Source: an uncultured Spirochaetota bacterium
GTDB lineage: Bacteria; Spirochaetota; Brevinematia; Brevinematales; JAOACQ01
Length of the DNA stretch: 64,000 nt
Assembly (NCBI GenBank): GCA_963768055.1
Contig: CAVYGN010000001.1
Location: 352,001 to 416,000, forward strand
Direction: 5' to 3'
Both the position numbers and the translations under genes were made by a program. Shown here one piece after another: positions 1 through 59,996 of the stretch; within the stretch, counting starts at the first letter, position 1; every line of letters starts with the position of its first letter. The notes below the pieces were generated by a model, which saw only the letters and a list, made by a program, of their open reading frames with translations, did no database searches and had not been told where the DNA came from.

Positions 1-597
1 ACTATTTACATTGGATTCCCAATTCTTGAGATTTTCTTCCGAGCTTGAATAGAATATGTTGCCCGTCCAATCAAAGTTTGTATTTGACGGGGTACTTCCG
101 TTATCCATCATGTATTTTGCAAGCTCATACCTGTGGTTTTGTATAGTTGTGAACAGGTTATCGTACCCCTGAGCTAAATTCATGTATTGGTCGATTTGCT
201 GTAATATTTCGTCGCAATGATAATATTCCATAACTACTGCCAGAAATGCGGATATTGCCATATCAACATTATCAGGCGAGAATAACCATGAAATATGGTC
301 ATAAACTTTATAAAACATATCTCCGGAACTGTTTATTGTCAGGTCGCCCTGCCAGTCTATGCCGTATGGTCCGAATTGCGGTATAATGGATTCTGCGGGC
401 GGCATTGTAAAAGGCTGCCCTATCTGCTGGTCTATCCTTTTTGAAAATTGTATTCCGCCGTTATTCGTGCTTATTGAATTTTTCCATTCATTAGCCCAAT
501 TTTGCCATTCGCCTTCAAACATTGTAACTGCGTCATAAGCAAATGATAATTGTATCGATGAAATGTTTATAACCATCATTATATATAAAAATTTCAT
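1..597 (-). CDS. Secreted conjugative-transfer protein, TraH-like (partial, runs off window start; absent from ORF track)
   Basis: ATG at 597, 5 bp after the traC stop; translated by hand with no stop seen: MKFLYIMMVINISSIQLSFAYDAV...NNGGIQFSKR...PFTMPP...GPYGIDWQGDLTINS... Signal-peptide-like N-terminus; GG..R / P....GID..G spacing resembles the TraH N-terminus. Confidence 0.45.
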   Translation of the reverse strand, partial: MKFLYIMMVINISSIQLSFAYDAVTMFEGEWQNWANEWKNSISTNNGGIQFSKRIDQQIGQPFTMPPAESIIPQFGPYGIDWQGDLTINSSGDMFYKVYDHISWLFSPDNVDMAISAFLAVVMEYYHCDEILQQIDQYMNLAQGYDNLFTTIQNHRYELAKYMMDNGSTPSNTNFDWTGNIFYSSSEENLKNWESNVNS

Positions 598-601
598 ATT
601 A

Positions 602-3124
602 TTATCTCCGTTCTTCTTTTTCCAGGGCTATTTTTTCTATTGCTTCCGACAGGCTAAGCCCGTCCTTTTCAAGTTCTTTCACCCGCATAACCTCTTTCGC
701 TTCCGATCCGAAAAGAGCTTTTTCAAACGGAGAGGCAATATGCCTTAAAAGCGTATTCCCGTGAGGAGTCATAAGCATAAATTCCGAGTATGAGCCTTTC
801 ACTCCGCCTATGCTTCTGAATAATTTTTCTGTAGCCTCATTGGACAAGTTCAGCTTGTGTTCGTTTTTAAGCCTGTCGATCGATGCGGGTTTCTGCTGGA
901 ATACTACCTGGTAAGAAGCAGTGTCAGCGAGGACCTTTGAATGTTCATTGCAATGAACGTCTTCCAGGGATTGAGTTCCTATAACTATCGAAGCGTAGCA
1001 TTTCCGGTATTGTCTGAAATCCTTTGATATCATTGGAGAAAGGTAAGGGTTGTCCTTGACATTATGGTATTCGTCGTAAGCTATGAATTTTTTCCTGTTA
1101 TAATGCTTTTTCGAATATACGATACTTGATATCTTTGAAAAAATAACCATGTATTCAAAAGTCAGCAGGGTTTCACCTATTTCTTTAACTGGAGGGAGTG
1201 CTATTGCGGTAAGATTGTTATCAAGGGAAAACTGCTTTTTTGAGGGGTTGCAAAGAGCGCCATATATCCCTTTCATTGAATAATTGAATAGCCTGTCCGC
1301 AAGGTTCGGATGTTTTTCTTTCTTTAACTCCGACATTACTTTCTCAACTGTTCCTTCAGAGCCATATTTTTCTGCCACCATTCTTATCGAACTTGACAGA
1401 TATCCAATCAAATCCTCGCCAAGTTTCTCTTTCGGGCTGGCCATAAACTGGAATATGTTTGTGAAATTGAGAAGTTCCTCCGGGCTGATGAACTTTCCTT
1501 CAAGGTTTAAGAATGGGTTAAATGAAATATCGTTATCTTTGTTATTGAAATCCACATATCGGCCGCCAAGAAGCTTTGTCGAGTTCTCATATGAATGCCC
1601 TACCTCGGTAATAACAATTATTGCGTCTTCAGCCAGGTAATTAGCCGCTATGGTCTGGATCAAAAAGGATTTTCCTGTTCCTGGAGGGCCGAATATTAAC
1701 ATCGCGTAATCGGGCGAATCCTCATCGAATATATCGAATAAATATAATTGGGACCTGCGGGTTATGAAAAATAAAGACGGCTTATATGTATTTCCCTTGA
1801 TATCACCGTAATAGGGCGCGATCGATGCGCAATTCCAGGCTGAAAAATGACGCTTCCTATCAAAAAAATCAAGGTTTTGAATATTAAAATTAAGAGGAAG
1901 CGAGTTAAGAAATATCGGGCATTTTATTAATGTTTCCTTTTGTGAAAGGTAACCCGCTCCCTCTATCTGCGAAGTAAGCTTTCTTGAAGAGTCGTTAATA
2001 TCATAGTGTTTTGAATTATTCCTTACCGCCATAAATGAAAGATATCCCTCATGAATATGGTTTCCATCATTGATATCTTTCTCCATTTTTTCAAGTTCGT
2101 TAACCTTCTCCCTTGCGTTCTTGAGTCTTTTCATTACATTGTATGTCGCCTTCTTTTTTTGTATCGTTTCCTTTAATGTCTCCTGCGACAATACCCTGAG
2201 ATTAAAGCATGATACGGTATTGGCGGGAACCTGGTTCCTGTCGGAAATATGGCTCCCAAGAAGGTTCGACGTTCCATATGGATAGATCGAAGAAGGATAA
2301 TTTTTTATTGTTGTTACCGATATTTCCGTTCCATTTGTTTTGATATACTTAGGGTTACTTAAATCAATATACATTTCGGAATCGAGCAGCTGCTCGGCTA
2401 TGAATTCGTCAGGATTGATCTTTGAATATCCGTCCCGGCCGAATAATCTGTCGAAATACCATTTAAGGTTATCGGGTGTGAAATCCGTGCATGGCGTCCC
2501 GGCTTGGATAAATAGATTGGTACATTCTTTCAAAATCCTTAAAACTCTTATTCTTTCATAATTAAAATCATTCTCAATTTCGGACTTTTCTAAACGGCCT
2601 GCTATAGCATTAAATAAATTCTTAAATCCCTCAGGGCTTATAATGCTTTTAATATATGAAACCCCGGTTCGGAATGTGAATAAGACCCTGAAATCCTTCG
2701 GGGTGTAGGTATCCGGGAATCCTCCCCTATATCCCGAATCTTTTGCTTTAAATATAGAATGAGCATTATCCATACAGTATTTTTTTAAAAGTTCGAAATT
2801 CGTCTTTTTCTTTGATATATATGTGCTGAGGTAAGGATCTATGAAATCAGTAGCAAAATTTATTACCTGGATCGAATCGTTCTCTTTTAAAAGGTCGATA
2901 GAGAATATATCTTTCAAAGCTTTTAGCCCGGCCTCGTCAATTCCAAGAATAGGGTAAATTTCAAGTATAAATCCGATCGATCCGTCTTTCATGTGGTAGA
3001 TCCGGTCGGTTTCATCATAATACAAATAGTCGATGAATTCGGAAGTTTTAATCCTTCCTCCGCCGCATAACAGTTCCCATAATGTATAATCAGGTCCATT
3101 ATAATGGACCTTTGATTGATTCAT
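602..3124 (-). CDS. traC: VirB4/TraC-family type IV secretion ATPase
   Basis: 840 aa; Walker A GPPGTGKS, Walker B IAYDEYH, RQYRKCYASIVIGTQS motif; N-terminal LYYDETDRIY...SIGFILE typical of F-type TraC; position after A-L-E-K-B-V genes. Confidence 0.9.
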   Translation of the reverse strand: MNQSKVHYNGPDYTLWELLCGGGRIKTSEFIDYLYYDETDRIYHMKDGSIGFILEIYPILGIDEAGLKALKDIFSIDLLKENDSIQVINFATDFIDPYLSTYISKKKTNFELLKKYCMDNAHSIFKAKDSGYRGGFPDTYTPKDFRVLFTFRTGVSYIKSIISPEGFKNLFNAIAGRLEKSEIENDFNYERIRVLRILKECTNLFIQAGTPCTDFTPDNLKWYFDRLFGRDGYSKINPDEFIAEQLLDSEMYIDLSNPKYIKTNGTEISVTTIKNYPSSIYPYGTSNLLGSHISDRNQVPANTVSCFNLRVLSQETLKETIQKKKATYNVMKRLKNAREKVNELEKMEKDINDGNHIHEGYLSFMAVRNNSKHYDINDSSRKLTSQIEGAGYLSQKETLIKCPIFLNSLPLNFNIQNLDFFDRKRHFSAWNCASIAPYYGDIKGNTYKPSLFFITRRSQLYLFDIFDEDSPDYAMLIFGPPGTGKSFLIQTIAANYLAEDAIIVITEVGHSYENSTKLLGGRYVDFNNKDNDISFNPFLNLEGKFISPEELLNFTNIFQFMASPKEKLGEDLIGYLSSSIRMVAEKYGSEGTVEKVMSELKKEKHPNLADRLFNYSMKGIYGALCNPSKKQFSLDNNLTAIALPPVKEIGETLLTFEYMVIFSKISSIVYSKKHYNRKKFIAYDEYHNVKDNPYLSPMISKDFRQYRKCYASIVIGTQSLEDVHCNEHSKVLADTASYQVVFQQKPASIDRLKNEHKLNLSNEATEKLFRSIGGVKGSYSEFMLMTPHGNTLLRHIASPFEKALFGSEAKEVMRVKELEKDGLSLSEAIEKIALEKEERR

Positions 3125-3128
3125 TTTT

Positions 3129-3479
3129 TTACTCCATCCAATCGGCCCGTTTTAATACCATCATAATATCTGTCCTGGGAACTCTTATAAGGTCGCCTTG
3201 TTTCTTAGGCATGATAACAATCCTTTTGATGATCTCATTTCTTCTCAGCGGAACTATAAGGGTATCGTCATACTGTATTGTATACCCCTGTCCTGCGGTA
3301 AAATATTGCTGGTTTTTATCGGTATTTTCATATTCCTTTCCAGTAAAAGGATCTCCGGAACGCAAATACACTCCATGATACAATGACATTGTATTGTACG
3401 ATGTCGGTATCCTATTCTGGGTCATTGAAATGCATGATGACAGCATTGCTGCAACCATCAGTAATAGAAAATATTTCAT
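3129..3479 (-). CDS. Lipoprotein, TraV-like by position
   Basis: Lipobox MLSSC; lies between traB and traC; C-terminal VPLRRNE..KRIVIMP....GDL......W resembles TraV. Confidence 0.6.
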   Translation of the reverse strand: MKYFLLLMVAAMLSSCISMTQNRIPTSYNTMSLYHGVYLRSGDPFTGKEYENTDKNQQYFTAGQGYTIQYDDTLIVPLRRNEIIKRIVIMPKKQGDLIRVPRTDIMMVLKRADWME

Positions 3480-3499
3480 ATTTACCTTCCTAAACCCAT

Positions 3500-4186
3500 T
3501 TATTTTTCAACAAAATCTTTTGTAAAGAACTCTACAGGCGAAAGCCATGTAACCTCAATTTGCTTCGAATTGATTACAACTAATTCGGGAAGCGTTTCCG
3601 CGGCCATCTTGAGATAAAATGATGATATTTGCGCGAAACTGCTTGAACCTGCCTCCTCAATGACTGTGCCGGCATTGTAATTAGTATTATTACCAGTCCC
3701 GCCGATAGTTAGATTCCCTTTTTGAAGCCATACGGCTAATGATTCCATCGCCGATGCTATGGCGGCCATGGCCACCTGTTCTTCTTCATGGCTTATTATC
3801 GCATCGGCCACAATACCCTCCATACCCTTATAACTAACGAATCCATTTATATCTATATAGCGGGGTGTATTGTTATAATCATAATAGGACATCCCAGTAC
3901 ATTTGATCATGATCTTGCGGCCTGTAAAATCCCCAACTGCCCACCCGGTTACTACTACTCCGTCGACATTAATTTTTCTTTTGTTGGGGGCCTCAGCATA
4001 ACCTTTTAATTGGATCAATATCGGACGAGTCCCTGACGGCGCCCCTTCCATCGGCGCTGTCGCTGATATGAGAAGTATTCCACTCGCTGTAGTTCCGGGG
4101 AGGATTGTAGTTTTGACAGCTTTTTCATCTGTGAATATATATTTGTTAATAAGCAGAAGGAGTATTAAGGGTATCGTTTTTTTCAT
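3500..4186 (-). CDS. traB: TraB/VirB10 (TrbI-like) C-terminal domain protein
   Basis: ILPGTTASGILL..ATAP...PILIQL...G.AVGD...R.MIKC..MS...INGFV...G.EG pattern of the TraB C-domain; own RBS (GGGAGA) and signal-peptide-like N-terminus. Confidence 0.75.
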   Translation of the reverse strand: MKKTIPLILLLLINKYIFTDEKAVKTTILPGTTASGILLISATAPMEGAPSGTRPILIQLKGYAEAPNKRKINVDGVVVTGWAVGDFTGRKIMIKCTGMSYYDYNNTPRYIDINGFVSYKGMEGIVADAIISHEEEQVAMAAIASAMESLAVWLQKGNLTIGGTGNNTNYNAGTVIEEAGSSSFAQISSFYLKMAAETLPELVVINSKQIEVTWLSPVEFFTKDFVEK

Positions 4187-4544
4187 TTTTATTCTCCCGT
4201 TTATCTTTAATGATTGTTACTTTCGGCGGCAGTTTTTCAAGGGTTTGCAGCTGCCGGGATAATGTTTCATTAGTTTTTTCCTGGCATTCGATTTCACTCT
4301 GGAGGTTGGAATTATTTATTTCCATTCTCTTTTTTATATCGTTATGATAGGCGTTTTGTTCTTCGAGTAGCAGGTCCGTGTTATAATTCGAGAATTTTAT
4401 TGTATTTCCTGTTATATTTTCCTTGCGATGACTGCCCTTGACAATTCCCCATAATAATGCGATTATAAGAACTGTTGCAGAGAATATTACTTGTATTCGC
4501 TTTTGTGATAATGCATTATGCGGGGTTTTTGGTTTTTCAATCAT
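4146..4544 (-). CDS. Membrane-anchored coiled-coil protein equivalent to the TraB N-terminal half
   Basis: Likely start MIEKPK at 4544, just after the traK stop; single TM helix (VIFSATVLIIALLWGIV) then a coiled coil; overlaps the traB C-domain ORF by 41 bp. Confidence 0.6.
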   Translation of the reverse strand: MIEKPKTPHNALSQKRIQVIFSATVLIIALLWGIVKGSHRKENITGNTIKFSNYNTDLLLEEQNAYHNDIKKRMEINNSNLQSEIECQEKTNETLSRQLQTLEKLPPKVTIIKDKRENKNEKNDTLNTPSAY

Positions 4545-4563
4545 CTTCTTTACCCATTCTTTT

Positions 4564-5358
4564 TTATTTTTGATAAATAACAAAGAGGCCGGTCTTTCTT
4601 CCTGCAGGTATGAAATATGAATCGATAAAAAAGGCCTCTGACTCTGAATAGCCCTCAAGTCTTTCGACTGAAGTAATGAAAGGAATCAGGTCGTCGTCTT
4701 TTAATTCCATATCAGGTCCGTTATTTCTTATTTCGAATACCCTCCCCGAATAACCGGCTGTCGTCATATCAAGGCATTCTACTATATCCGCAGATTTGAT
4801 TTGTGATATCAGCTTTTCGACTTTTTCTGTAAGGAATCCGGCAATAAGGTTTTCTTTCCCTTCAAGTATTTGATAATACGCGTTATAAATTTCATGGAAC
4901 ATGGATATTTCCTGTTCGGACAGTAATATCAGATCTCCGTTTTCATAGGTTTCTACATATTCTCCTTTCGATGTTTCTTTTTGTAATGAGTTTTCTTTTG
5001 TTATCGTATCTTCTATATTGAAAGCAAAAGTCTTAACGTTTTTCGATGGAATTAACCGGATAGGATAGACGCTGCCGTCGGATAATATAACGGTAATAGG
5101 AGATTCCGCCTTTGCAGACACCTGGAGAAAGTTCTTGTCCTTGGCTGCCCTCATATCATTAGTCGATACACTTGTCCAGATCGTCCTGACAATCTCAGGA
5201 AACTGTATTGTTGTATTCTGGTTATAAGGTATTTCAAGGATAGTTTCTTTTGCCGCTTTAATTGATACAGTCTCCTGGGTTTCAAAGGATTTTCCATAGG
5301 ATAGGACTCTTATATTTATTAAAAATACTACTGATGTTAAAAAAAGAAACTTATTCAT
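4564..5358 (-). CDS. traK: TraK-like (VirB9/secretin-like) conjugative transfer protein
   Basis: Signal peptide; NTTIQFP...PITVIL.DG.VYPIRLIP N-domain; C-terminal GRVFEIRN...L.DDD...IPAG.KT.LFVI; position between traE and traB. Confidence 0.7.
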   Translation of the reverse strand: MNKFLFLTSVVFLINIRVLSYGKSFETQETVSIKAAKETILEIPYNQNTTIQFPEIVRTIWTSVSTNDMRAAKDKNFLQVSAKAESPITVILSDGSVYPIRLIPSKNVKTFAFNIEDTITKENSLQKETSKGEYVETYENGDLILLSEQEISMFHEIYNAYYQILEGKENLIAGFLTEKVEKLISQIKSADIVECLDMTTAGYSGRVFEIRNNGPDMELKDDDLIPFITSVERLEGYSESEAFFIDSYFIPAGRKTGLFVIYQK

Positions 5359-5368
5359 TTCCCCTCCA

Positions 5369-5935
5369 TTAACCCTTTTTAGATTCTTGTATATCAGTGC
5401 TGTCGATATAAATACCGCTTATTGTTCTTTTAAAATGGATGGATATTTTTGTTTCATACTGCGCCGCCAGATTGTCTCCCATGTATGAAACCCTTGTTCC
5501 GAAAAGTGTAACTGAATATTTTGAAGGATCGATTTCGGTATCACCCTTCAATTCGAATTCGCTTCGCATTGAATACTTTAAAATTTTTGTATCGTAAAAA
5601 TTCCTGTATTCTTTGTCGTAATCTGCAGTCCTTTCAGGGGTGATCATCGATTTTATCATATCGAAATGAGATAAATAATTCTTTTCATTATAATTTTGAG
5701 TCTGATAAGCATATATTGTTGCGTAATACCTCATTACTGTTACAGGCATGTCAATGTCCGACAATTCCAGTACCTTATTGCTGATCCCCGGGATAATAAT
5801 AGGTTGTTTTTTTATCGCGGATACAGTAAGAATTAAAATCACGAGAACAGCCATTACAATCCTGTCTTTTGTTATTTGCATCCGGTATTTTGTTATTTCG
5901 TCAACGAGTTTGACCGTAAGGTCATTTCCTGTCAT
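5369..5935 (-). CDS. traE: TraE-like (VirB8 fold) conjugative transfer protein
   Basis: 188 aa; single N-terminal TM followed by IIIP; C-terminal VTLFG....YMGD...; position after traL. Confidence 0.75.
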   Translation of the reverse strand: MTGNDLTVKLVDEITKYRMQITKDRIVMAVLVILILTVSAIKKQPIIIPGISNKVLELSDIDMPVTVMRYYATIYAYQTQNYNEKNYLSHFDMIKSMITPERTADYDKEYRNFYDTKILKYSMRSEFELKGDTEIDPSKYSVTLFGTRVSYMGDNLAAQYETKISIHFKRTISGIYIDSTDIQESKKG

Positions 5936-5946
5936 TTTAATATCCT

Positions 5947-6249
5947 CTATTCAAAAAGAACGCTATTTATTTTTTCTCCGGGCGGTATAGTTTTCAGGGG
6001 ATTATAGTATCCATAATGATATAATAAATGAATGAAATACCCTTTCGGTTTGTTCATCCTGAAATGCCTGAATATCATAATTGCCGCTATTCCTATAAAA
6101 AAAGGAAGGATATTCATGAATATCCACCCGGCTATCCCGGAAACAAAAGCGATCGCAATATCGGGTATGATAAATCCGTACATTTCTTCCCGCCGGTATA
6201 ACATGCTTATGATTTTAAACCTTTCTTCATTCATAACATAATCATCCAT
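5947..6249 (-). CDS. traL: TraL-like (VirB3) membrane protein
   Basis: About 100 aa, two TMs, KPKGYFIHLLYHYG...IPP motif typical of TraL; start overlaps the pilin stop (TAATG); alternative start 6234. Confidence 0.8.
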   Translation of the reverse strand: MDDYVMNEERFKIISMLYRREEMYGFIIPDIAIAFVSGIAGWIFMNILPFFIGIAAIMIFRHFRMNKPKGYFIHLLYHYGYYNPLKTIPPGEKINSVLFE

Positions 6250-6548
6250 TACGATAATAACGCTACAGCCAGGAATGCGCAGATTGCCGTAACGCCTATT
6301 CTTATCCATGAAACCTGGCCGGTCGCTCCCTTCGAAAGCAGCAAAATGATGAACATTATTATAGCTATCACTCCAAGTATACCGCCGATGATAGTTTTAG
6401 CGCTATTGAGAAAAGTCTGGATAGACTGCAAGAAACTCAGGCTCTGGCTGGATAGGTCGCCGTTCGAGGAAGTCTGTGAGAACACATTCCCGTATAATGC
6501 TGCCAATAAGATGGAGGCGGCAGGTTTTCGCATTTTTTTTAAATTCAT
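6249..6548 (-). CDS. Conjugative pilin (TraA/VirB2-like)
   Basis: 99 aa; long leader plus two hydrophobic helices separated by a short loop; immediately upstream of traL; RBS GAGGA. Confidence 0.7.
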   Translation of the reverse strand: MNLKKMRKPAASILLAALYGNVFSQTSSNGDLSSQSLSFLQSIQTFLNSAKTIIGGILGVIAIIMFIILLLSKGATGQVSWIRIGVTAICAFLAVALLS

Positions 6549-6555
6549 ATAATCC

Positions 6556-6990
6556 TCACTTTAGAAAATAAAATTCTATATCGCTGCCGGGGCTCTCCCT
6601 GAATTCGAGGGCTGCCGGTTTCTCCATGTTCGACAGGACGCTTTCTATAAGCGTCTTGTTCGAATAACTGCATATTGCGACGGTTCTTTTTAGGGGGAAG
6701 TAATCGCCGATCTTATCGATGCAATACCTGACGGTCCATTGGCTTATCTCCTTTTCTTTTATGAGGAGAGGGGCGGAAGCGGTTTCAAGGGTTTCTTCAT
6801 GATTGTCATCGTTTCTCAGGATGGCATAGCAGTTTTGGGGTAGTATGTACAAGGAGCCGTCTTTTCTGGCTTCTTCTTTTTTTATCATGACGATATCGCC
6901 GCTTAATTTGCCTTTTTTGGTATAATCCGGAAGTTCCGTGCAGGAACAGGCAAGGGCCGCAATGAATAATATTGCAATCGGTTTTAACAT
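6556..6990 (-). CDS. Hypothetical lipoprotein, first gene of the tra operon
   Basis: Lipobox ALACSC; RBS GAGG; 7 bp from the pilin gene. Confidence 0.6.
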   Translation of the reverse strand: MLKPIAILFIAALACSCTELPDYTKKGKLSGDIVMIKKEEARKDGSLYILPQNCYAILRNDDNHEETLETASAPLLIKEKEISQWTVRYCIDKIGDYFPLKRTVAICSYSNKTLIESVLSNMEKPAALEFRESPGSDIEFYFLK

Positions 6991-7078
6991 TTTCAGCCTC
7001 TATAATCAATAATAAATTGGTACTACCTATTAAAAAGTATCCGTGCCTTTTTTAAAAAATTCATATAAACGAGTAACG

Positions 7079-7107
7079 ATTATAAAACAATTTAATAATG
7101 ATGTCAA
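7079..7107 (-). promoter_or_regulatory. Consensus sigma70 promoter for the tra operon
   Basis: Minus strand TTGACA (7107-7102), 17 bp spacer, TATAAT (7084-7079); about 90 bp upstream of the 6990 start. Confidence 0.75.
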
Positions 7108-9279: not shown

Positions 9280-9310
9280 ATTCTTGAAATAAATGAATAG
9301 GAGAAAAAAT

Positions 9311-10261
9311 ATGAAATTTAATCTTCCTGAATATAAGAATATGAGCGAAATGGCTTATATTGATGTCTGCCGATTATCGGAAGATGAAGCGAGAACAATT
9401 TTAGAAAATATTCGCTGGAAGGATGGTATAATATGTCCTCATTGTGAAAGTAAAAATATTGTTAGAATCATCGGAAAAGCAAAAACCATAAGAGATGGTC
9501 TTATACGCTGTAAGGATTGCAGAAAGCAATTTACAGTTACATCCGGGACAATAATGCATGGGTCACATATTACATTAAGGCAATGGGTACAGGCTTATTA
9601 TTCAATGTGTTCTCATAAAAAGGGTGTTTCGTCTCTCCAGTTACAAAGAAACCTCGGATTACATACTTATAAATCCGCATGGCATTTATCCCATAGGATT
9701 AGGATGACGATGAAAAAGGAGCCTTTAGCAAATATGCTCAATGGACAAGTTGAAGTCGATGAAACCTATGTTGGCGGGAAGCCGAGAAAGGGAAATAACA
9801 GCAACAGCAAAAGAGGGCGAGGAACTGAAAAAGTCCCTGTAATGGTATTGGTTGAAAGAAACGGTAAAGCCGTATCTCATCCTGTTCCCGATGTAACCGG
9901 GGAAACATTAAAGTCAGCCATTAAAGAAGTAGTTAATAAAGAATCAACAATTATTACTGACGAATGGAGAAGTTATAACGGGATTGAAAAAGAGTATAAA
10001 GGCGGCCATAAAGTAATTAATCACGGGATAGGCCAGTATTCAGAGAATGGGATCAATACAAATACCGCCGAATCATATTTTTCACTCTTAAAGAGGGGAA
10101 TCGTAGGAACCTTCCATCATATTTCTAAAAAACATCTTTTCAGGTATTGTGCGGAATTTAATTTCAGATGGAATAACAGGAAAAAAAGCGATGGAGAAAG
10201 AACAGAAAACGCTATTAGGGGGATAGTCGGAAAAAGATTAAAATATAAGGGGGCTTTTTAA
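9311..10261 (+). CDS. IS1595-family DDE transposase
   Basis: Zn ribbon CPHC...CKDC; VEVDETYVGG, ITDEW and NTNTAESYFSLLKRG...HHIS.KHL.RY..EF.FRWN motifs; RBS AGGAG before 9311. Confidence 0.93.
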   Translation: MKFNLPEYKNMSEMAYIDVCRLSEDEARTILENIRWKDGIICPHCESKNIVRIIGKAKTIRDGLIRCKDCRKQFTVTSGTIMHGSHITLRQWVQAYYSMCSHKKGVSSLQLQRNLGLHTYKSAWHLSHRIRMTMKKEPLANMLNGQVEVDETYVGGKPRKGNNSNSKRGRGTEKVPVMVLVERNGKAVSHPVPDVTGETLKSAIKEVVNKESTIITDEWRSYNGIEKEYKGGHKVINHGIGQYSENGINTNTAESYFSLLKRGIVGTFHHISKKHLFRYCAEFNFRWNNRKKSDGERTENAIRGIVGKRLKYKGAF

Positions 10262-10911
10262 TGGATAGCATAAGTAAAGAGACTATACAGATTTTGTTTT
10301 TTCTAATGCCAGGATTATTAGCATCAATATTTGTAGAATCATTAATTGTAAGAAAAGGACGGGATCAGTTTACTTTAATAGTTGAAGCATTGATATTTTC
10401 AGTATTTATTTACATTACTTATCAATTAATTAACGGAAAAAAAATCATAAACTTTCTGGAAAATTATGATTATATGTGTATTACTCAATATTTAGAATTG
10501 GTTGGAATAAGTATATTTTATGGAATATTATTTGGCGTATTAATATACAGAGACGCTTTCCATTGGTTTTTCAGAACAATTAAGATCACAAAAAAAACAT
10601 CAAGAATGTCTATATGGAACGATATTATGGAAACAAATTTGGGAAAGAAAAATTGGGCAAATATCCATATGTCTAATGGTCAAATTATTATAGGTCAAAT
10701 TTATGGATATTCTGATAGTCCAGATAGTCAATATATATTTGTTGAGAATCCTTATCTTAAAAAGAATGAAGAAGAAATATTATCTCATCCTTATTATAAC
10801 CCTATTCTTTTGAAGAAAGGCAAAAAAAAATTAATTGATGGGATATTGATAACACCCGAAATGAAAATAGATTATATTGAATTTTTTAAAGATGAAACAA
10901 TTAAGAATTAA
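10261..10911 (+). CDS. IS passenger membrane protein (DUF6338-like)
   Basis: LMPG motif, three TMs, then SIW..., G..IIG....YSDSP....IF soluble domain; very AT-rich; TAATG-coupled to the transposase. Confidence 0.65.
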   Translation: MDSISKETIQILFFLMPGLLASIFVESLIVRKGRDQFTLIVEALIFSVFIYITYQLINGKKIINFLENYDYMCITQYLELVGISIFYGILFGVLIYRDAFHWFFRTIKITKKTSRMSIWNDIMETNLGKKNWANIHMSNGQIIIGQIYGYSDSPDSQYIFVENPYLKKNEEEILSHPYYNPILLKKGKKKLIDGILITPEMKIDYIEFFKDETIKN

Positions 10912-24392: not shown

Positions 24393-24578
24393 TTATCCTC
24401 TTCTAAGGCTGCTTATGATCAGAATTATAATTATCTGTCAGTTAATTGTCAATGCGAATGTCATTATGTGTGCCATTATTATTCGGGGTTTTGAAACAGG
24501 CCCGGATTTTCGATCCGGCGTCCTTGACAATTGTATAACAAAAGATTATATATAAAGAAAATTCGAGGAGGGTGCCAT

Positions 24579-37679: not shown

Positions 37680-38960
37680 TTAATTTCCGGCAGTGACCGC
37701 GACCGCACCGTCAAGGTATTTCTGCAATATCCCGGGTATGGCGACGCTTCCGTCCTCCTGCTGGTAATTCTCAAGGACCGCCACCAGAGTCCTTCCCACG
37801 GCAAGGCCTGAACCGTTGAGGGTGTGCACGAACTCAGGTTTACCCGTCGATTCCCTTCTGAATTTTATATTTGCCCTTCTTGCCTGAAAATCCATGCAGT
37901 TTGACACGGATGAAATTTCCTTGTAATTATTAAGTCCCGGCAGCCAGACTTCAAGGTCGTAACACTTGGCCGCGGAGAAACCCATATCTCCGCTCGAAAG
38001 CAGGACGACCCTGTAAGGAAGTTCCAGGAGCTGGAGGATCTTCTCGGCTTCTTTAAGCATATCCTGATGCAGTATTTCAGAATCTTCGGGCCTGGAGAAA
38101 TTGACAAGTTCGACCTTGTTAAACTGGTGCTGGCGTATGAGGCCCCTTGTCTGGCTGCCCCAGCTGCCGGCTTCGAGCCTGAAACTGGGGGCGTAAGCCG
38201 TGAACTTTAAAGGAAGGTCCGGTTCGCCGATCACTTCATTGCTGTAGATGTTCGTGAGCGGCACCTCGGCCGTGGGATTCAGGTAAAGGTCCGAGGATTC
38301 TATCCTGTAAATGTCCTCCTTGAATTTCGGAAGCTGTCCAGTTCCCCGGAGAGAAGAGGAATTGATTAAAAAAGGAACGAATTTCTCCTCGTAGCCCGCA
38401 CCCGAATGCGTGTCGAGCATGAAATTGATAAGGGCCCGCTCTAGCCTTGCCGCTCCCCCGTTATAGAGGGTAAAACCGCTGCCGGCTATCTTTGCGCCCC
38501 TTTCAAAGTCGAGGATGCCGAGTTTTTGAGCTAATTCGTAATGGGGCAGGGGTTCGAACGTAAATTCGCGGACCTTCCCCCATTTTTTTATTTCCATGTT
38601 GAATGTTTCGTCGGGACCTTCCGGCACGCCGTCCATAGGCATATTCGGGACCATGAGGAGCGCGGTTTCGAGTTCGACGTTTAACGATTTTTCCATTTCC
38701 TCGACCGTCAGGAGTTCCGCATTGATGCCGGCGACCTCTTTCATCTGCCCTTCGGCGTCCCCTCCCTTCGATTTCAGAAGGCCGACTTCTTTTGAGAGAG
38801 ATTTCTTCCGGTGCCTGAGCTCGTCAGCGGTCTTCTGGGTTTCTTTTTTTTTATAATTCAATACGGATATTTTTTCGATAAGTTCCATGGTTTTAAGCCT
38901 GAATTTAAGCTTTGCTTTTACTCCCCGTTCGTCTTCCATTATCCGGTTGATGTCCAGCAT
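37680..38960 (-). CDS. serS: Serine--tRNA ligase
   Basis: GTGQLPKF, PTAEVP, FR.EAG, GLIRQHQFNKVE, EISSVSNC.DFQARR and HTLNGSGLAVGR motifs. Confidence 0.98.
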   Translation of the reverse strand: MLDINRIMEDERGVKAKLKFRLKTMELIEKISVLNYKKKETQKTADELRHRKKSLSKEVGLLKSKGGDAEGQMKEVAGINAELLTVEEMEKSLNVELETALLMVPNMPMDGVPEGPDETFNMEIKKWGKVREFTFEPLPHYELAQKLGILDFERGAKIAGSGFTLYNGGAARLERALINFMLDTHSGAGYEEKFVPFLINSSSLRGTGQLPKFKEDIYRIESSDLYLNPTAEVPLTNIYSNEVIGEPDLPLKFTAYAPSFRLEAGSWGSQTRGLIRQHQFNKVELVNFSRPEDSEILHQDMLKEAEKILQLLELPYRVVLLSSGDMGFSAAKCYDLEVWLPGLNNYKEISSVSNCMDFQARRANIKFRRESTGKPEFVHTLNGSGLAVGRTLVAVLENYQQEDGSVAIPGILQKYLDGAVAVTAGN

Positions 38961-38977
38961 AATCTTCCGCCTTACAA

Positions 38978-41900
38978 TTATTGAACATGTCTTTCAAATA
39001 TCAGTTCCACGTAAGCCCTCGATATTTTCAGGCTTTTAGATATATCCTCGATGCTCCATGCCTGCTCCTTGAGCCGCAATATGTTCTTGATCACATCCTC
39101 GTCCGCGCCGGATTCTTCCGAAAGAGCCCTTCTCGAGCCCGGCCTCGAGCCGAGTGACGTTTCCTGAGAATCCTTGACCCTTTCGAGCCTGTTTTCCAGC
39201 TTCGCTACCCAGTCCCTCATTTTCTGCACCTTCTTCGATTCCTCCTCGATAAGCACAAGGAGGTTATCGATATCGACGATCTTGTCGACGGCGTAACTCA
39301 CCTTATCCTGGTCGCCGAAAATTTTTGTTATGTTGGCCTGGGCGTTCTTGATGTCGTCCTCGATCTTTTTGGAAGTTTTGACTATCCCCCCGAGTTTTTC
39401 TTCGGCGCCGGCGATCTTTGAATGAACGTCTTTAAGGTCTTCCTTGGACGTTTCGATCGAATTCATTATTTTATTGATGACTTCTTTTTTCTTTTCTACA
39501 TCGGCCGCTTTTAACTTGATGTCCTCGTATGATTTCAGGGTTTCGAGAAGGACGTTCCTGACCTCCTCGGCTTTTCCCTGCTGTTTTTCTATAAGGGTGA
39601 GAATGCCTTCGGTTTCCCTGGCTTTCTGAAGGGCTTCCGTCACGGTCTGGTAGATAAGCGCCGTTTCTTTTTTATTATTGCCGATATTCACGAAAAGCGC
39701 GCTCAAATCCCTGTTTTCGATCCTTATCAGGTCTATTGTTTTCAGCGACTCTTCAATGTCTTTTCTCCGGGAGTCCAGTTCTTTCAGGAACTGGCTTATT
39801 ATCTCTATCTGGGAATTAGACTTTGCCGCAAGTCCTTCAGCTCTTTCGAGGACCGAGGACTTTTTCAGCAGGCCGTCGTAACGGGCTTCAATTTCCCTTG
39901 TCTTCTTGTTCAGCTCCTTGATATCTTCGAGGATCTCGGCCTTGAAGTCCTCTTTTTCATTTTTAAGCTGTCCCGCCAGGGCAGTAATATCCTTTTTACC
40001 CGAGTTATAAACCTGCATTATCTCTTCACCGCCTTTCTTCACATACGAATCGAATTCGGCAGCGATCTCTTTTATCTTTTTCGATATCTCGCCTTCGACG
40101 GTTATCGCCTTATTGCGGATGGAAACTATTGTCTTTTCCTCGAAATTCCTGAGCTCCTTCTCCATTCCGGCTATCCGGTCGAATACTTTTTTATATTCCT
40201 CGCTGGATTTGGTCAGATATACGCCGATGCCGTCGGAAAAGGTATTTTTATACTCTTCTATTTTAGAGGCGTAGCCTGTAATAATGGCTTCGGTTTTTTT
40301 GGAGAGTTCGTCCTCCCTTTGCTTAGCCCGTGCGGTGAAATCGCCGATCTCCCTGGCAAAGGCTCCGGCCTTTTTTTCCATATCGTCCTGTATCTCCAGC
40401 GCCCTGCCGTTAAGTTTTTTAACGATTTCGTCGGCGGGAGGGGTGAACGAATCCTTGAAACTGTCTATTTCTTCTTCCATTTTCACCCTGTATTCATTAA
40501 GCGCCGACTGGAGCATTTTCACGTTTTCATCGGAGTTTTTAGCGATGAATTTCCTGTCCTGTTCCCTGAGCCCCTCGAGGAAATTGGTGTGAACCTGCCT
40601 TAATTTTGAGAGTTCTTCATCCATCCCGGTTTTTTCAAGGTCGATCTTATCGTATATTTCCTTTATCCTGTCTTTAATAAGTCCTTCAAAGCCCGCCTTT
40701 CTCTCTTCGATGGCCTTTTCAAGGGTAGATATCTCACGCCTCATTTCCTCGTAGGTAAGATGCATGGCGTTCAATTCCTCCGCACTTTTTATCCTGGCCG
40801 AATCGATGACATTCCTAGACTGATCCAGCTCTTTCTGCAAATTAATAATCTCGCTTTTATTGTCCGACAGGGCCCCTTTGAGGCCTGCAAGCTCCTTTTT
40901 ATAAAATTCGATGTTGTTCATGGTATCGAGTTTTACCTCTTCAAGGATGCCGTCTATATCATGCCGGAAGTTCTGCAGCCCGCTCTCGCCCTTTCCCGAC
41001 AGTTCTTCATAAAATTTCTGGAAACGCTGTTCTATATTTTTGTTGATGGAATTAAGCTGAATGTCGGCCTTCCTGACAGCTTCATCCATTATCGAACTGA
41101 GGCGCTCGATTTTTTTGTTCATTTCTTTGTCTTTTTCGTTGACCTGTACGATCATTTCGTTCGTGAGGTTCCTGAGCTCCGTTCTCTTCGCTATGAAATC
41201 GCCGTCGGACCCCTTGAGGGCCTCGGCGAGCTTTTGAGCGAGGGCCGAGTTATATTCATTCAGCTTTGATTCGGATTCTTCCCTTAAGTCCTCGATCATA
41301 GCCCCGGTCCTGAGTTTCGCGCTTTCTATTTCGTCTTTCAGGGTCCCGATCTGCGTCAGGCTCCAGCTTCTCGCTTCTTCAAGGGAAGAAGATATTTCTT
41401 TTATTACATGATCCTTCCGGTCTGCGGCGGCTTTGTGGGCCGCGGCAATCTCGTTTTTCAGTTCTTTTATCTCGTTCCTGGTGTTGCTGATCAGTTCTTT
41501 ATAGTCCCCGACGAAGCCTATTTTGAGATCGTCGACAAACTTATCCATTTCCTTCGATTTCCCCGCGATGATATCCTGTATCCCGGTCTGCGCTTTCAAG
41601 CCTGCGGTTTTAAGGCTTTCCACGTTATTCTTGTATTCCTCGAGTTCTCCCATAAGGGACGTCTGCGAGCTTTTCAGCTTCTTGCCGAATTCCGTCTCAA
41701 AGTGGGTGACTGTCCGTTCGAGAAGGGAGAGCTTCTCGGAGATCGAAACAGTCGACTTGTCGATCCCTGAAAAAATCTCTTTTTCCTTGTCCCTGATCTT
41801 CTGCAGAGCGGATTCGGCCGCCTCCTTTCCCTGACCCTTGATTTCGTTCCCGACGCCCGACAATTCGGTCTTCACCGATTGCAGGAGCGATCCGAGCTCT

Positions 41901-44900
41901 TTCTCTTTTTCCGCAATTTCGCCTATCAAAGCGTTTGTCTCGATCGAGGCCTGTTTCTGGAGTTCGGCGACGTCGTCCTTGAATTTATCTGTAATTTCTT
42001 TCACGAACTTCGAAAGTTTTCCGCCCATTTCATTTACCGCTCCAGAATTCGCTGCGAGTTTTACGTTTATATTCTTCATATTTAAGTTGAATTCCTCTTC
42101 GAACTTCTTTTCAGACCTGGAATACTGCTCGTCAAGAGCGTTAAGGCGTTCTTCGGTTTTTTCGATGGCCGATTTTTTCATGTTTTCGATTTCTCTGGTA
42201 ATCTCGGTTCCTGCCCGTTTAAACATGGCGTCGGCTTCCCCGGAGATTTTAGCCTGAAGGGCTTCGATCTCGTTATTCATAGACCCGAATTTTTCTTCCA
42301 TGCCGGCGACCTTGGAGTTGTAGCGGGTTTCGATTTCTTTTACGCCGCTCTCAATGGAAGAGATCTTCTGGGTTAAAGTCGATTCGATGTTCTTAGAAAG
42401 GCTGTCGGATTTCGCCTTCAGCAGGGCCTCGGTATCCTCAAGTTTTTTATTTACGATCTTTTCACTCTGTTCGAGCCTCGTTTCAAGTTCCGAACTCTTT
42501 GAGAATATCTCCCTGCTCATCTCGTTGAAGCGTTTGACGGCCTCGGCGAGTTTCCCGCTGTATTCGGAGAGCGTAGAGCCTGTGCTGTTTTTCAGGTTCT
42601 GCACGGCAGTTAAAAATTCCTTTTTAGCTTCGTTCACTTCGCCGGCGACTTCCTTTGCCGCCTTGTCCGACTCTTCCCTGTAAGCTGCGATCCTGCTCTC
42701 GAAAGTTTCCCTGATGTCTGAAGCCTCCTCCTGGTATTTGGAGGTGAGCCCTACGAGGTTCTTCTCAATCTCTTCGCGCGTCACTTCGTATCTTCCGTCG
42801 AGGCCGGAAAGCCTTTCCTCGACGCTCGTCTCGAGGGATTTCTTAAGTGAATCTATTTCCTTCATTATCTCTGCGTTGGCCCTTGTAAAGAGGTTCTCAG
42901 CCTCGCTCTGTATTCTCTTCTCGAGGACCGAGATCTCCGAATTAATCTTGCCGAATTTCTGCTCCATGCCGGTGATCCTCGAGTTGTAGCCGGACTCGAT
43001 CTCCTTGAACTGTTTGTCGAGGCCCGAGGCGAGGGCTTCCATCCTTCCGCCGATCTCGGTCTTCCTTTCTTCGAATTCCTTGACGGTTTGCCGGAGTTCA
43101 ATTTCAATCGAAGAAACCCTGTCCTCCATCGATTCCCTGAGTTCCTTTTCAGTCTGGGAGAGGTTTATCTCGAGGGTCTTTGCGATGCTGTCGGTCCTGG
43201 CCTTCACGCCCGATTCCATCTTTGAAAATTCCTTATCGTACTGTTCGCTCTTTCGTGAGATTATATCTTCGAGCGAGGATTCGAAGCCCGTTACGCTCTT
43301 TGAAAGCAGGGCCTGGGTATCCTCGAGTTTTTTATTAACTGTCTTTTCGCTCTGAGCGAGCCTCGTTTCAAGTTCCGAACTCTTGGAGAGTATCTCCCTG
43401 CTCATCTCGTTGAAGCGCTTGACGGCCTCGGCGAGTTTCCCGTTGTATTCGGAGAGCGTAGAGCCTGTGCTGTTTTTCAGGTTCTGCGCGTTCGTTAAAA
43501 ATTCCTTTTTAGCTTCGTTCACTTCGCCGGCTACATCATGAGCCGCCTTATCCGTGTCCGCCCTGTAAGAGGCTATTTTTTCCTCGAAGGTCTCTCGTAT
43601 GTCTGAAGCCTCCTCCTGGTACTTCGAAATGAGACCTACGAGGTTCTTCTCTATCTCTTCCCGGGTCTGTTCGTATCTTCCGTCGAGGCCGGAAAGCCTT
43701 TCCTCGACGCTCGTCTCGAGGGATTTCTTAAGCGAATCTATTTCCTTCATTATTTCAGCGTTGGCCTTTGAAAAAAGCGTCTCAGCCTCGCTCTGTATCT
43801 TCTTCTCGAGGACCGCGATCTCGGAATTAATCTTGCCGAATTTCTGCTCCATGCCGGCGATCCTCGAGTTGTAGCCGGACTCGATCTCCTTGAACTGTTT
43901 GTCGAGGCCCGAGGCGAGGGCTTCCATCCTTCCGCCTATTTCGCTCTTCCTTCCCTCGAATTCCTTGACGGTTTGCCGGAGTTCAATTTCAATCGAAGAA
44001 ACCCTGTCCTCCATCGATTCCCTGAGTTCCTTTTCAGTCTGGATAAAACCGGATTCGATGTTCTTTGAAAGGCTGTCGGATTTTGCTTTGAGAAGGGCCT
44101 CTGTATCCTCAAGTTTTTTATTAACTGTCTTTTCGCTCTGAGCGAGCCTCGTTTCAAGTTCCGAACTCTTGGAGAGTATCTCCCTGCTCATCTCGTTGAA
44201 GCGCTTGACGGCCTCGGCGAGTTTCCCGTTGTATTCGGAGAGCGTAGAGCCTGTGCTGTTTTTCAGGTTCTGCGCGTTCGTTAAAAATTCCTTTTTAGCT
44301 TCGTTCACTTCGCCGGCTACATCATGAGCCGCCTTATCCGTGTCCGCCCTGTAAGAGGCTATTTTTTCCTCGAAGGTCTCTCGTATGTCTGAAGCCTCCT
44401 CCTGGTACTTCGAAATGAGACCTACGAGGTTCTTCTCTATCTCTTCCCGGGTCTGTTCGTATCTTCCGTCGAGGCCGGAAAGCCTTTCCTCGACGCTCGT
44501 CTCGAGGGATTTCTTAAGCGAATCTATTTCCTTCATTATCTCAGCGTTGGCCTTTGAAAAAAGCGTCTCAGCCTCGCTCTGTATCTTCTTCTCGAGGACC
44601 GCGATCTCGGAATTAATCTTGCCGAATTTCTGCTCCATGCCGGCGATCCTCGAGTTGTAGCCGGACTCGATCTCCTTGAACTGTTTGTCGAGGCCCGAGG
44701 CGAGGGCTTCCATCCTTCCGCCTATTTCGCTCTTCCTTCCCTCCAGCTCCTTTGCGACCTGGCGCAGGTCGTTATCGATCGAAGAGACCTTGTCCTCCAT
44801 AGCCTCCCTCAATTCCTTTTCAGTCTGGGAGAGGTTTATCTCGAGGGCCTTCGCGATGCTGTCGGTCCTTGCCTTCACGCCCGATTCCATCTTTGAAAAT

Positions 44901-47800: not shown

Positions 47801-47833
47801 GATTCCCTCCCAATCCAATCGCCAGGGCCGCCG

Positions 47834-55957: not shown

Positions 55958-55986
55958 ATTATAACAAGACCAAAACATCATGTCAA
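55958..55986 (-). promoter_or_regulatory. Consensus sigma70 promoter
   Basis: Minus strand TTGACA (55986-55981), N17, TATAAT (55963-55958). Confidence 0.65.
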
Positions 55987-59480: not shown

Positions 59481-59996
59481 AGGCGGTTTAAAAACTGCCC
59501 TATCATGTACAAATAGACTAATTTAAGATAAAATAATAGTCAAGGTTAACATTGTAGAGGGGAATGTTAAAATGACAAAAATCAAGAAGCAGACGAATCA
59601 AGGACTGTTTGAATACCAGGAACGAATTGAAAAACTTGGCAAAACTCCATTAGACAAGCTTAACGAAAATATAGAATGGGAAGACTTCCGACCTATTCTA
59701 ACTGAACTGCTCGCCCTCAAAGAACAAAAGGCTCCAGGCGGCGCTTCACATTATGATTATGTTTTTATGTTCAAAATCCTCATTATTCAGAAGTATTATA
59801 ACCTTTCCGATGAGCATACAATTCATTTATAATGAGGCAAAAGGCGCAATATTTTACATAAACCCCATTGAAAATGGGGATATTTATGCCATGCTAAAGG
59901 TATTGATTAGAAATTTTGAAAATAAATTGGAATAAGAATTTTAATCAAATTGATGTTTGTGGATCACGGTTATAAAGAGTAGATATTGGAACCGCC
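59481..59996 (+). mobile_element. Truncated IS5-family element (transposase N-terminal fragment 59572-59832)
   Basis: GLF....R...L...PL..L...I.WE.FRP.L...GG...YD..FMFKILIIQ..YNLSDE; flanked by degenerate TIR-like AGGCGGTTTAAAAACT (59481) and GATATTGGAACCGCC (59982-59996). Confidence 0.75.

Follow-up and report, generated by a model that had tools for sequence, protein, structure and literature searches.

The Rickettsiales rvh type IV secretion system (T4SS), whose components are scattered on the chromosome and vertically inherited, is a P-type (VirB/D) system thought to secrete proteins, and the gonococcal genetic island (GGI) carries a near-complete F-type gene set. In Neisseria gonorrhoeae the GGI is described as encoding an F-like T4SS that is chromosomal, has a relaxase and a coupling protein of its own, acts on the DNA of the chromosome and secretes single-stranded DNA (ssDNA) to the medium (PMC12857230). 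Among the other classes of mating-pair formation (MPF) systems, MPF-G (ICEHin1056/ICEclc type) is reported to share TraL, TraE and TraG homologues with the F-type systems (MPF-F) and to be alone among these classes in possessing a homologue of TraH (PMC4027160). The non-proteobacterial MPF-F systems listed in the main text of Guglielmini 2012 come only from Aquificae, Protochlamydia and Deferribacteres, with spirochaetes unmentioned (PMC3548315); the term 'Spirochaet' is absent from that main text as it is from those of Guglielmini 2014 and of a 2025 T4SS review, the supplements of which could list such systems. Full-text literature searches returned no paper on T4SS in Brevinematales. Here we describe an operon for an F-like T4SS that starts in a 64-kb stretch of DNA from an uncultured bacterium of this spirochaete order (the window, meaning the whole stretch at its full length) and runs on beyond its left edge, together with a relaxase and a coupling protein encoded on another contig of the same genome. 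Taken together these loci are probably a long-resident, chromosomally dispersed, reduced and deeply divergent F-like DNA-transfer system, a reading in which the two loci would work together and DNA would be the substrate.

The source genome (G000, 3.69 Mb) is in two contigs, C1 and C2, and the window corresponds to G000:C1:352001-416000. A first-pass annotation of the window, made from its letters alone, had surmised a spirochaete-like host, which agrees with the placement of the genome in Brevinematales. It was compared with four further genomes of the same genus, G181, G201, G132 and G211 (n=5 with G000), of which G132 and G211 have a completeness of 94-95% and G132 is split over 130 contigs, with G153 from the same order, and with G186 from the same class.

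The putative transfer operon and its F-type relatives

The list of open reading frames (ORFs) gives ten on the minus strand in window 1-7107, separated by 4-20 nucleotides (nt) or overlapping, just as the first-pass annotation had described them. The operon does not stop at the window edge, since seven further co-directional genes follow to the left of the window, down to G000:C1:341686. The whole operon thus has 17 genes in 17.3 kb (G000:C1:341686-358990), about 10.3 kb of which lies beyond the left edge of the window, and window 1-7107 is its promoter-proximal 40%. All 17 operon ORFs are full length when compared with their orthologues. The genes that define the system are as follows (window coordinates; aa, amino acids; TM, predicted transmembrane segment):

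6249..6548, minus strand: pilin-like gene, 99 aa, VirB2/TraA analogue with a leader peptide and two hydrophobic helices
5947..6309, minus strand: traL (VirB3-like); likely true start at 6234 (95 aa), orthologues beginning at residue 26
5369..5935, minus strand: traE (VirB8-like), 188 aa, one N-terminal TM at 19-37
4564..5358, minus strand: traK-like gene (VirB9-like secretin component), 264 aa, with a signal peptide
4146..4658, minus strand: protein with a TM and a coiled-coil-like region, putative N-terminal half of a split TraB; 131-170 aa depending on the start, which is uncertain
3500..4186, minus strand: traB C-terminal gene (TrbI/VirB10 domain), 228 aa, with its own hydrophobic N-terminus
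3129..3479, minus strand: traV-like lipoprotein gene (VirB7 analogue), 116 aa, signal peptide with Cys
602..3124, minus strand: traC (VirB4 ATPase), 840 aa, with both Walker motifs (A and B)

The order pilin-L-E-K-B-V-C is present, its L-E-K-B-V-C part being that of F, with TraB as two genes. The F-type order A-L-E-K-B-V-C-H proposed in the first-pass annotation stands from the pilin to TraC; its final H has no profile support, and the single traB gene it assumed is here a pair. TraC matches the F-type TraC model TIGR02746 with E 1.4e-112 and 377 bits, against an equivalog cut-off of 567 bits, as well as Pfam TraC_F_IV (8e-34), and obtains 119 bits on VirB4_CagE, 95 on the MPF-G model TIGR03744 and 47 on TrbE. 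The TraB C-terminal protein matches Pfam TrbI (9.6e-9, 35.8 bits versus a cut-off of 35) and the F-type TraB model NF010289 (7.2e-13), and TraE matches its Pfam family at 7.9e-6 (25.9 bits versus 24.8), with the TraL matches to Pfam (2.3e-4) and TIGR02762 (1.5e-4) both lying slightly below their cut-offs.

Profiles were also compared using hhalign, with local alignments of 2-5 sequences, which are shallow, set against profiles of 1-5 sequences drawn from five annotated F-type plasmids; 18 local families were each compared with 16-25 reference families, p727, p726 and TraC being left out. In these comparisons we recovered TraB for the TrbI-domain protein at 99.6% (199 columns against TraB 209-414), TraL for TraL at 96.9% (E 1.3e-10), TraK for the TraK-like protein at 93% (E 2.9e-7, over the C-terminal ~90 columns) and TraV for the TraV-like lipoprotein at 88% (E 2.9e-6, over the C-terminal 45 columns); these four values are well clear of the 0-3% background that all remaining pairs gave. 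TraE reached 35%. The TraK-like protein also has a weak match to the Bacteroidetes TraN model (VirB9-like, TIGR03780, 8.5e-5), and the TraV-like protein is conserved in G201, G181 and G153. The pilin gave 2% against F TraA, which is not significant, and only weak Pfam matches (T4SS_pilin 0.016, TrbC 0.087); its nearest named clusters in a protein-language-model Atlas are T4SS pilin families. Its mature form of ~69 residues is almost invariant in three genomes in which the other operon proteins are 36-81% identical, with a ratio of nonsynonymous to synonymous rates (dN/dS) of ~0.07. Searches of the PDB by hidden Markov model with the TraK, TraV and pilin alignments gave nothing relevant.

The two-gene TraB deserves separate description. 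The protein encoded at 4146..4658 has a TM at 54-72 followed by a charged coiled-coil-like region, and its gene overlaps the TrbI-domain gene by 41 nt in another frame; it has no profile match and obtains 2.5% against TraB in hhalign. The TraB C-terminal gene has a dN/dS of ~0.03. The same two-gene layout is found in G201, G181 and G153 (143 + 227 aa), and the TraB of G186 is a single protein of 438 aa. We infer that the two genes are a conserved split VirB10, the putative N-terminal half being assigned by position and topology only. Since the split is conserved at the level of the order, it would be a feature of design and not a lesion. Elsewhere in the operon, two extra small cytoplasmic ORFs lie between traE and traK in G181 and G201 (L012:15156-17339 and L016:5241-6144, respectively), without counterpart in G000 or G153. 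G181 additionally carries an insertion sequence (IS; DDE_Tnp_1) there, and an 86-aa fragment related to this IS is found at window 59572-59832.

We noted a strong separation of this TraC from those of plasmids. In a search against 72,556 plasmids the best 25 matches listed were all TraC or TraC family, at 22-25% identity over 92-95% of the query. A collection of 5.8 billion proteins contained five TraC relatives at 40-76% identity, with the next match at 20%, and of the 401 genomes sampled from the phylum 6, with G000 among them, yielded a TraC. The same architecture, with the split TraB and the order 390-aa protein, 276-aa protein, TraG, is seen in G153 of the same order. A VirB4 tree was built by quick maximum likelihood from 19 rows, with MPF-T as the sole outgroup, other MPF classes (MPF-G included) left out and long branches; in it eight Brevinematales-type sequences form one clade with a support of 97 in the Shimodaira-Hasegawa-like approximate likelihood-ratio test (SH-aLRT). 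The sister clade (SH-aLRT 93) consists of five plasmid F-type TraCs, the TraC of G186 and one gammaproteobacterial metagenome protein, and the 15 sequences of the two clades together are separated from four MPF-T sequences with SH-aLRT 100. The tree shows no more than that the lineage is not nested among the sampled F systems. The first-pass annotation had proposed a highly divergent F-type-related T4SS, and had named nesting at high identity among proteobacterial MPF-F as the finding that would speak against it; with an identity to plasmid TraC of at most 25% and a clade lying outside the sampled F-type TraCs as their sister, the proposal is borne out and no such nesting was seen.

Several canonical F-type components go unrecognized in this lineage. 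Pfam searches of whole genomes with TraH, TraU and TraN gave no match in G000, G181, G201 or G153, and for Pfam TraF these genomes yielded only thioredoxins below threshold at other loci; in G186 the searches recovered, on one contig, TraH (3e-59), TraU (2e-90), TraN (1e-24) and TraF (8e-46). Given that the canonical set is detected in G186, the Brevinematales lineage appears to be without such a set. TraW and TrbC have no hhalign match above 12% among the 18 local protein families, a result for the locus only, no genome-wide search having been made. The first-pass annotation had noted the lack of traW, traU, traN and traF between traC and the following gene: by the tests used traW, traU and traN are indeed absent, and a TraF-like protein, along with TraG, is encoded just outside the window. 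The genes that follow traC are:

G000:C1:351425-352597, minus strand: 390-aa secreted, putatively periplasmic protein of no recognised family, adjoining traC; its last 199 codons are window 1..597
G000:C1:341686-351407, left of the window: the remaining operon genes after the 390-aa gene
In the operon left of the window, minus strand: TraF-like protein, 276 aa, top hhalign match TraF
G000:C1:348104-350566, minus strand: TraG, 820 aa, VirB6-like N-domain, TM clusters at 36-88 and 361-417
In the operon left of the window, minus strand: 158-aa predicted outer-membrane barrel, with signal peptide and barrel-type C-terminal motif (sequence features only)
In the operon left of the window, minus strand: DUF5710 protein, 250 aa, N-terminal DUF5710 at 5.7e-15
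At the 3' end of the operon, minus strand: three lipoproteins of 219, 727 and 726 aa, conserved in G181 and G201

The first of these had been called TraH-like. We found no Pfam, NCBIfam or PADLOC match for the 390-aa protein, no match to Pfam TraH in any of the six scanned members of its family, and hhalign values against TraH of 0.7% (3 sequences) and 0.2% (10 sequences). The family is small, with 9 representatives among 1.84 billion in an exhaustive profile search and only five close relatives in a word-based homologue search with the 390-aa alignment. Foldseek gave no match at E<=0.001 for its AlphaFold2 (AF2) model, which is of poor quality (pLDDT 52.7). In the language-model Atlas, 22 of the 30 nearest clusters belong to the set carrying PF06122 TraH (score 0.91, 208 of 256 features shared), with a low recognition value for the 390-aa query. 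No profile supports the label, and the 390-aa protein is a possible TraH by this language-model lead only.

The F-plasmid TraF is a thioredoxin-fold protein that lacks the CXXC motif. The 276-aa protein, which is likewise without CXXC, has as its top hhalign matches TraF (29%, E 6e-4) and then TraW (11.5%), and no Pfam TraF match at the operon locus. Its AF2 model has a pLDDT of 63, and the C-terminal domain gave 14 Foldseek matches at E<=0.001, all of those listed being thioredoxin-fold proteins. The N-terminal 520 residues of TraG align with the TraG N-domain over 459 columns (hhalign 98.4%, E 1e-14). DUF5710, found in the 250-aa protein, is reported as fused to Rep_3 replication initiators in Acinetobacter plasmids (PMC11233732). 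The 726-aa lipoprotein has a clostripain (C11) peptidase domain and a weak, sub-threshold match to the PPC domain; its gene is split in G181. In G000 alone a Fic-domain protein (PF02661, 1.5e-24; G000:C1:340619-341365) lies directly downstream of the C11-peptidase gene.

At the other end, the operon is headed by two further features:

7079..7107, minus strand: predicted sigma-70-type promoter TTGACA-N17-TATAAT, 12/12 consensus match
6556..6990, minus strand: first gene, 144-aa predicted lipoprotein with a hydrophobic N-terminus followed by a Cys fitting a lipobox, lineage-specific

Both had been picked out in the first-pass annotation and both are upheld. The promoter at 7107..7079 is the sole perfect site in a 9-kb scan, the 64-kb window holds three exact copies of the pattern where shuffled sequence would give 0.02, and the orthologous operons of G201 and G181 are preceded by the same -35 hexamer, with an A/T-rich -10-like hexamer at about the same spacing from it. 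The two other perfect sites are at window 24424-24452 and 55958-55986 on the minus strand, and consensus sigma-70 promoters seem to be really used in the G000 genome. Between the -10 box and the first start codon there is a short palindromic stretch (CCAAT...ATTGAT; window 7010-7040, minus strand), kept in G000, G201 and G181, which may be an operator. The 144-aa protein, which has a signal peptide and lipobox-compatible cysteines, has orthologues in G201 (54% identity) and G181 (46%) and no Pfam or NCBIfam match. We considered it as a second TraV and rejected this, as the hhalign match of 32% spans the signal/lipobox region only.

The distant relaxase and coupling protein

No relaxase or type IV coupling protein (T4CP) was found by Pfam and NCBIfam among the operon proteins. 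Both are encoded on the second contig:

G000:C2:438972-441866: TrwC-type MOBF relaxase-helicase, 964 aa, PF08751 at 6e-53 and AAA_30 at 2e-8
G000:C2:434917-436431: T4CP-1 (VirD4/TrwB type), 504 aa, PF10412 at 2e-73, PF12696 at 4e-28 and PF02534 at 1e-21

The predicted relaxase aligns with R388 TrwC and has the conserved His triad (H...HxH) and the YY site; T4CP-1 has a TM at 23-41 and a visible P-loop. Relaxases of the MOBP/Q-type family PF03432 were found in none of four genomes. The module is surrounded by housekeeping genes, with glycosyltransferase genes and a DegT-family aminotransferase gene on one side, and on the other an ispE-like kinase gene, spoVG, prs, an L25 gene, pth and tilS. 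It lies beside ispE-spoVG-prs also, by tblastn, in G132, where the T4CP gene and trwC are adjacent, and in G181, and, by coordinates, in G201, and the prs neighborhood is without trwC and T4CP in two genomes of other genera. Among 12 genomes of the family TrwC is present in five, these being 5/5 of the genus and 0/7 of the other genera; T4CP is present in 4/12 and not in G211. In G181 the module and the MPF block are ~2.1 Mb apart on the same contig, and in G153 the relaxase, the T4CP and one of two MPF clusters are on one contig, ~30 kb apart. The linkage in G153 suggests that the relaxase/T4CP and MPF genes were originally linked and were ancestrally one system. The first-pass annotation had seen no integrase, att site, relaxase or coupling protein at this end of the window. 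This holds for an integrase and for att-like transfer RNA (tRNA) genes, none of which is near; a MOBF relaxase and a T4CP do exist, on the other contig.

A second coupling-protein gene needs to be distinguished from this module. T4CP-2, a paralogue 37% identical and without a TM, is encoded at C1:270746, some 75 kb beyond the left edge of the window. A very AT-rich insertion of ~5.5 kb interrupts it in G000 (G000:C1:270746-277534; L041:8746-15534) and encodes a PLD-like nuclease, a DUF3644 protein (PADLOC candidate PDC-S19, E 1e-123) and a protein that bears the C-terminal domain of a Mu transposase; the T4CP-2 gene is intact in G181 and G201, and the G132 copy is at a contig end. Beside it lie consecutive genes for polytopic proteins of 576, 495 and 465 aa (G000:C1:266063-270678; L041:4063-8678) with 4-10 predicted TM and a weak PMT-like match, which are conserved in G181 and G201, with G132 keeping the 576-aa gene before the contig end; they may be GT-C-type glycosyltransferases. 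T4CP-2 was considered as a part of the system and set aside, as it has no TM and its neighbors are polytopic and unrelated to Tra families. The same region (C1:266063-278494) was also considered as the site of the missing Tra proteins and rejected, the 576-, 495- and 465-aa proteins being polytopic and having matched none of 16 Tra families in hhalign and no family in Pfam or PADLOC.

What the genomes show directly is the gene content, its conservation and location, and catalytic motifs that are intact; these are most readily accommodated by a DNA-transfer system divided between two chromosomal loci that would work together. In such a system the relaxase would nick a chromosomal or mobilisable origin of transfer (oriT), the T4CP would pass the relaxase with its bound ssDNA on to the channel and pilus of the operon, powered by TraC, and the DNA would exit the cell, either to a recipient, in the manner of a high-frequency-of-recombination (Hfr) strain or by mobilisation in trans, or to the medium.

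A number of observations count against this interpretation. TrwC is 43-64% identical between genomes whose neighboring genes are 87-100% identical. G132 has TrwC and T4CP without detectable TraC, and G211 has TrwC copies without T4CP or TraC, indicating that the relaxase and MPF loci are not strictly co-inherited. No oriT was recognised. TraU, TraN and TraH are undetected genome-wide and TraW and TrbC unmatched locally, while the G186 set was readily detected; some of the F proteins missing here are reported to be needed for normal F pili (PMC4027160), and the machine may work differently or without F-like pili. To these may be added the shallowness of the hhalign alignments and the single outgroup, omitted classes and long branches of the VirB4 tree.

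Of the alternatives, the one that survives best takes the operon to encode a T4SS that works without a relaxase and has been exapted to secrete proteins, to adhere or to antagonise other bacteria, with the 3' C11 peptidase with its PPC domain and the 727- and 219-aa lipoproteins as surface or secreted cargo, and with TrwC and T4CP as unrelated relics or serving other elements. In its favor are an operon without relaxase or T4CP, three 3' lipoproteins, one of them of the clostripain family, that are conserved in G181 and G201, and the retention by G132 of TrwC and T4CP without detectable MPF; MPF-F systems lacking a relaxase (MOB) are, moreover, reported in non-proteobacteria in Guglielmini 2012 (PMC3548315). 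Set against it are the full-length MOBF relaxase and T4CP with intact motifs in every genome with the MPF block, their linkage to MPF genes on a single contig of G153, and the operon's DUF5710 protein, which hints at DNA handling, the domain being otherwise reported fused to Rep_3 (PMC11233732). No recognisable effector/immunity pair was seen. We therefore regard exaptation for such roles as unlikely, if still the strongest competitor of an F-like DNA-transfer system.

Residence in the chromosome

To the left of the operon, tblastn searches with G000 ORFs showed that the 17-gene block lies beside the same left-flank genes (G000 313582-330052) in G000, G181 and G201, and the block also shares one right-flank gene with G201. 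The flank is present in G132 and G211 with unrelated DNA at the block site, and TraC is nowhere in these genomes by genome search. Block proteins are 36-76% identical to those of G000 in G181 and 36-81% in G201, and flank proteins 40-93%, with G201 the closer for both sets. Between G000 and G201 the synonymous sites are saturated (proportion of synonymous differences, pS, 0.61-0.84), with a proportion of nonsynonymous differences (pN) of 0.12-0.20 in core genes. The GC content of the block is 0.398 against 0.415 for the genome, which is the 21st percentile of equal-size windows, and an initial impression of a low-GC compositional island failed against this genome-wide distribution. There is no integrase or recombinase among the ORFs from C1:332001 to window 12535, where we found an IS1595 transposase only. 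The 40 kb on the left and the 25 kb on the right contain no tRNA gene that could serve as an attachment (att) site, no direct-repeat search having been made. By these comparisons the block is not a recently acquired integrative and conjugative element (ICE); it is a long-term resident of the chromosome that probably predates the divergence of the species in the genus.

Certain strain-specific segments are found around the block. The IS1595-family transposase (322 aa, NF033547, E 1e-65) is at window 9293-10261 and is followed by a DUF6338 protein (to 10911), this segment (window 9293-10911) being strain-specific and lying between the operon promoter and an M24 peptidase gene. On the other side, G000 has an 11.6-kb strain-specific insert between the block and the left flank, which encodes, among other products, the Fic protein, an esterase, a kinase and SPFH/NfeD proteins. 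Further along, window 38000-48000 stands out by an AT skew of -0.27 to -0.34 and by the highest GC of the window (0.47-0.51), and may hold one or more very long minus-strand genes.

These data also bear on the idea of a still-mobile ICE of a new lineage, with an integrase/excisionase and att that are unrecognised or lie further off and with relaxase and T4CP acting in trans. Only 3/5 genomes of the genus have the block, its site being without it in G132 and G211; the loss of synteny coincides exactly with the block edges, the DNA on its flanks is strain-specific and has the IS1595 transposase, and there are extra genes or an IS within the G181 and G201 operons, all of which would suit such an element. 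It fits poorly with the lack of an integrase, recombinase or tRNA gene within ~10 kb on either side, with a left junction gene that is the same in three genomes diverged to synonymous saturation, with the divergence of block and flank proteins in step (G201 being closer than G181 for both), with ordinary GC and with a relaxase and T4CP at least 2 Mb off on the G181 contig, and we consider it improbable. The first-pass annotation had left the choice between a new ICE lineage and a domesticated system; the shared site in three genomes, the co-divergence with the flanks, the GC content and the lack of integrase and tRNA tell against the former half, and what remains of the proposal is a chromosomally fixed transfer or secretion system. 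It had also held that a relaxase and integrase nearby would refute the domesticated option alone; the relaxase found here does not do so, as it too has a fixed and conserved place in the chromosome, away from the operon. The least likely rival, a decaying and non-functional remnant of an ancient conjugative element, for which one might cite the several missing F-type genes, the split TraB, the 5.5-kb insertion interrupting T4CP-2 in G000, and the split C11-peptidase gene and IS inside the operon of G181, is very hard to reconcile with 17/17 intact genes in G000 and G201, strong purifying selection, an invariant mature pilin, a conserved promoter -35 hexamer and a TraB split conserved at the level of the order.

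Returning to the F-like DNA-transfer system, a more specific version of it can be put forward as a tentative conjecture, well short of the confidence we attach to the general reading. In this free-living Brevinematales genus, a domesticated sister lineage of the F type, without TraU, TraN, TraW and TrbC and with a two-piece VirB10 and its own barrel and lipoproteins for the spirochaete envelope, may act with the fixed MOBF relaxase and T4CP to export or transfer chromosomal DNA in an Hfr-like or GGI-like manner, as a host-owned means of gene exchange and not a selfish element.

Comparison with known systems

In the literature covered here conjugation systems are essentially undescribed in Spirochaetota. 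The present lineage shows which F-type parts are dispensable or replaceable, in that it has no TraU, TraN, TraW or TrbC, a split VirB10 and new outer-membrane partners. With MPF and DNA-processing genes both chromosomally fixed yet far apart, it is a natural case of separated modules. It bears on the domestication of conjugative elements and on chromosomal gene flow in environmental spirochaetes, and it offers a possible native route of DNA delivery for genetically intractable relatives.

Among described classes the closest is MPF-F, as represented by F (NC_002483) and by plasmids of Aquicella, Novosphingobium, Vibrio and Pelobacter (pPRO1). The locus resembles these in the order pilin-traL-E-K-B-V-C with a traF-like gene and traG later, in a TraC that scores best by far on the F-type model and in a partner relaxase of the MOBF family, as in F; a VirB11-like family was not found among the Pfam and NCBIfam matches to operon proteins, another point of likeness to MPF-F. 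It differs in that its TraC is 22-25% identical, below the equivalog cut-off and in a sister clade rather than a nested one; in that TraU, TraN and TraH are undetected genome-wide and TraW and TrbC undetected at the locus, with TraB in two genes; in the additional lipoprotein at its head, the small predicted outer-membrane barrel, the DUF5710 protein and further lipoproteins, the C11 peptidase included; and in a relaxase and T4CP that are unlinked and chromosomal. Given the unmet equivalog cut-off of TraC and the lack of TraU, TraN, TraW and TrbC, the system is best viewed as a reduced sister lineage of MPF-F and not as a member of it.

Canonical F-type systems also reach Spirochaetota, as is evident from contig C21 of G186 (L065-L066), of the same phylum and class, which carries a canonical F-type T4SS with TraC and TraB homologues, TraH, TraU, TraN and TraF and an unsplit TraB of 438 aa. 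Its TraC groups with that of Pelobacter pPRO1 (SH-aLRT 100), and the system, which is unrelated to the Brevinematales lineage, seems to be an F-type acquisition of the ordinary kind. MPF-G systems are, like the present one, typically chromosomal; here, unlike in MPF-G, no Tfc-type genes were recognised and TraC obtains 95 bits on TIGR03744 versus 377 on the F-type model. Unlike in the rvh system, the MPF genes are here in one operon and the relaxase/T4CP module alone is separate. As judged from its description, the GGI is the closest functional precedent for an F-like system that resides in the chromosome and exports DNA; it forms a single island with a MOBH relaxase (PMC12857230), whereas the Brevinematales system has a MOBF relaxase, dispersed loci and a reduced gene set.

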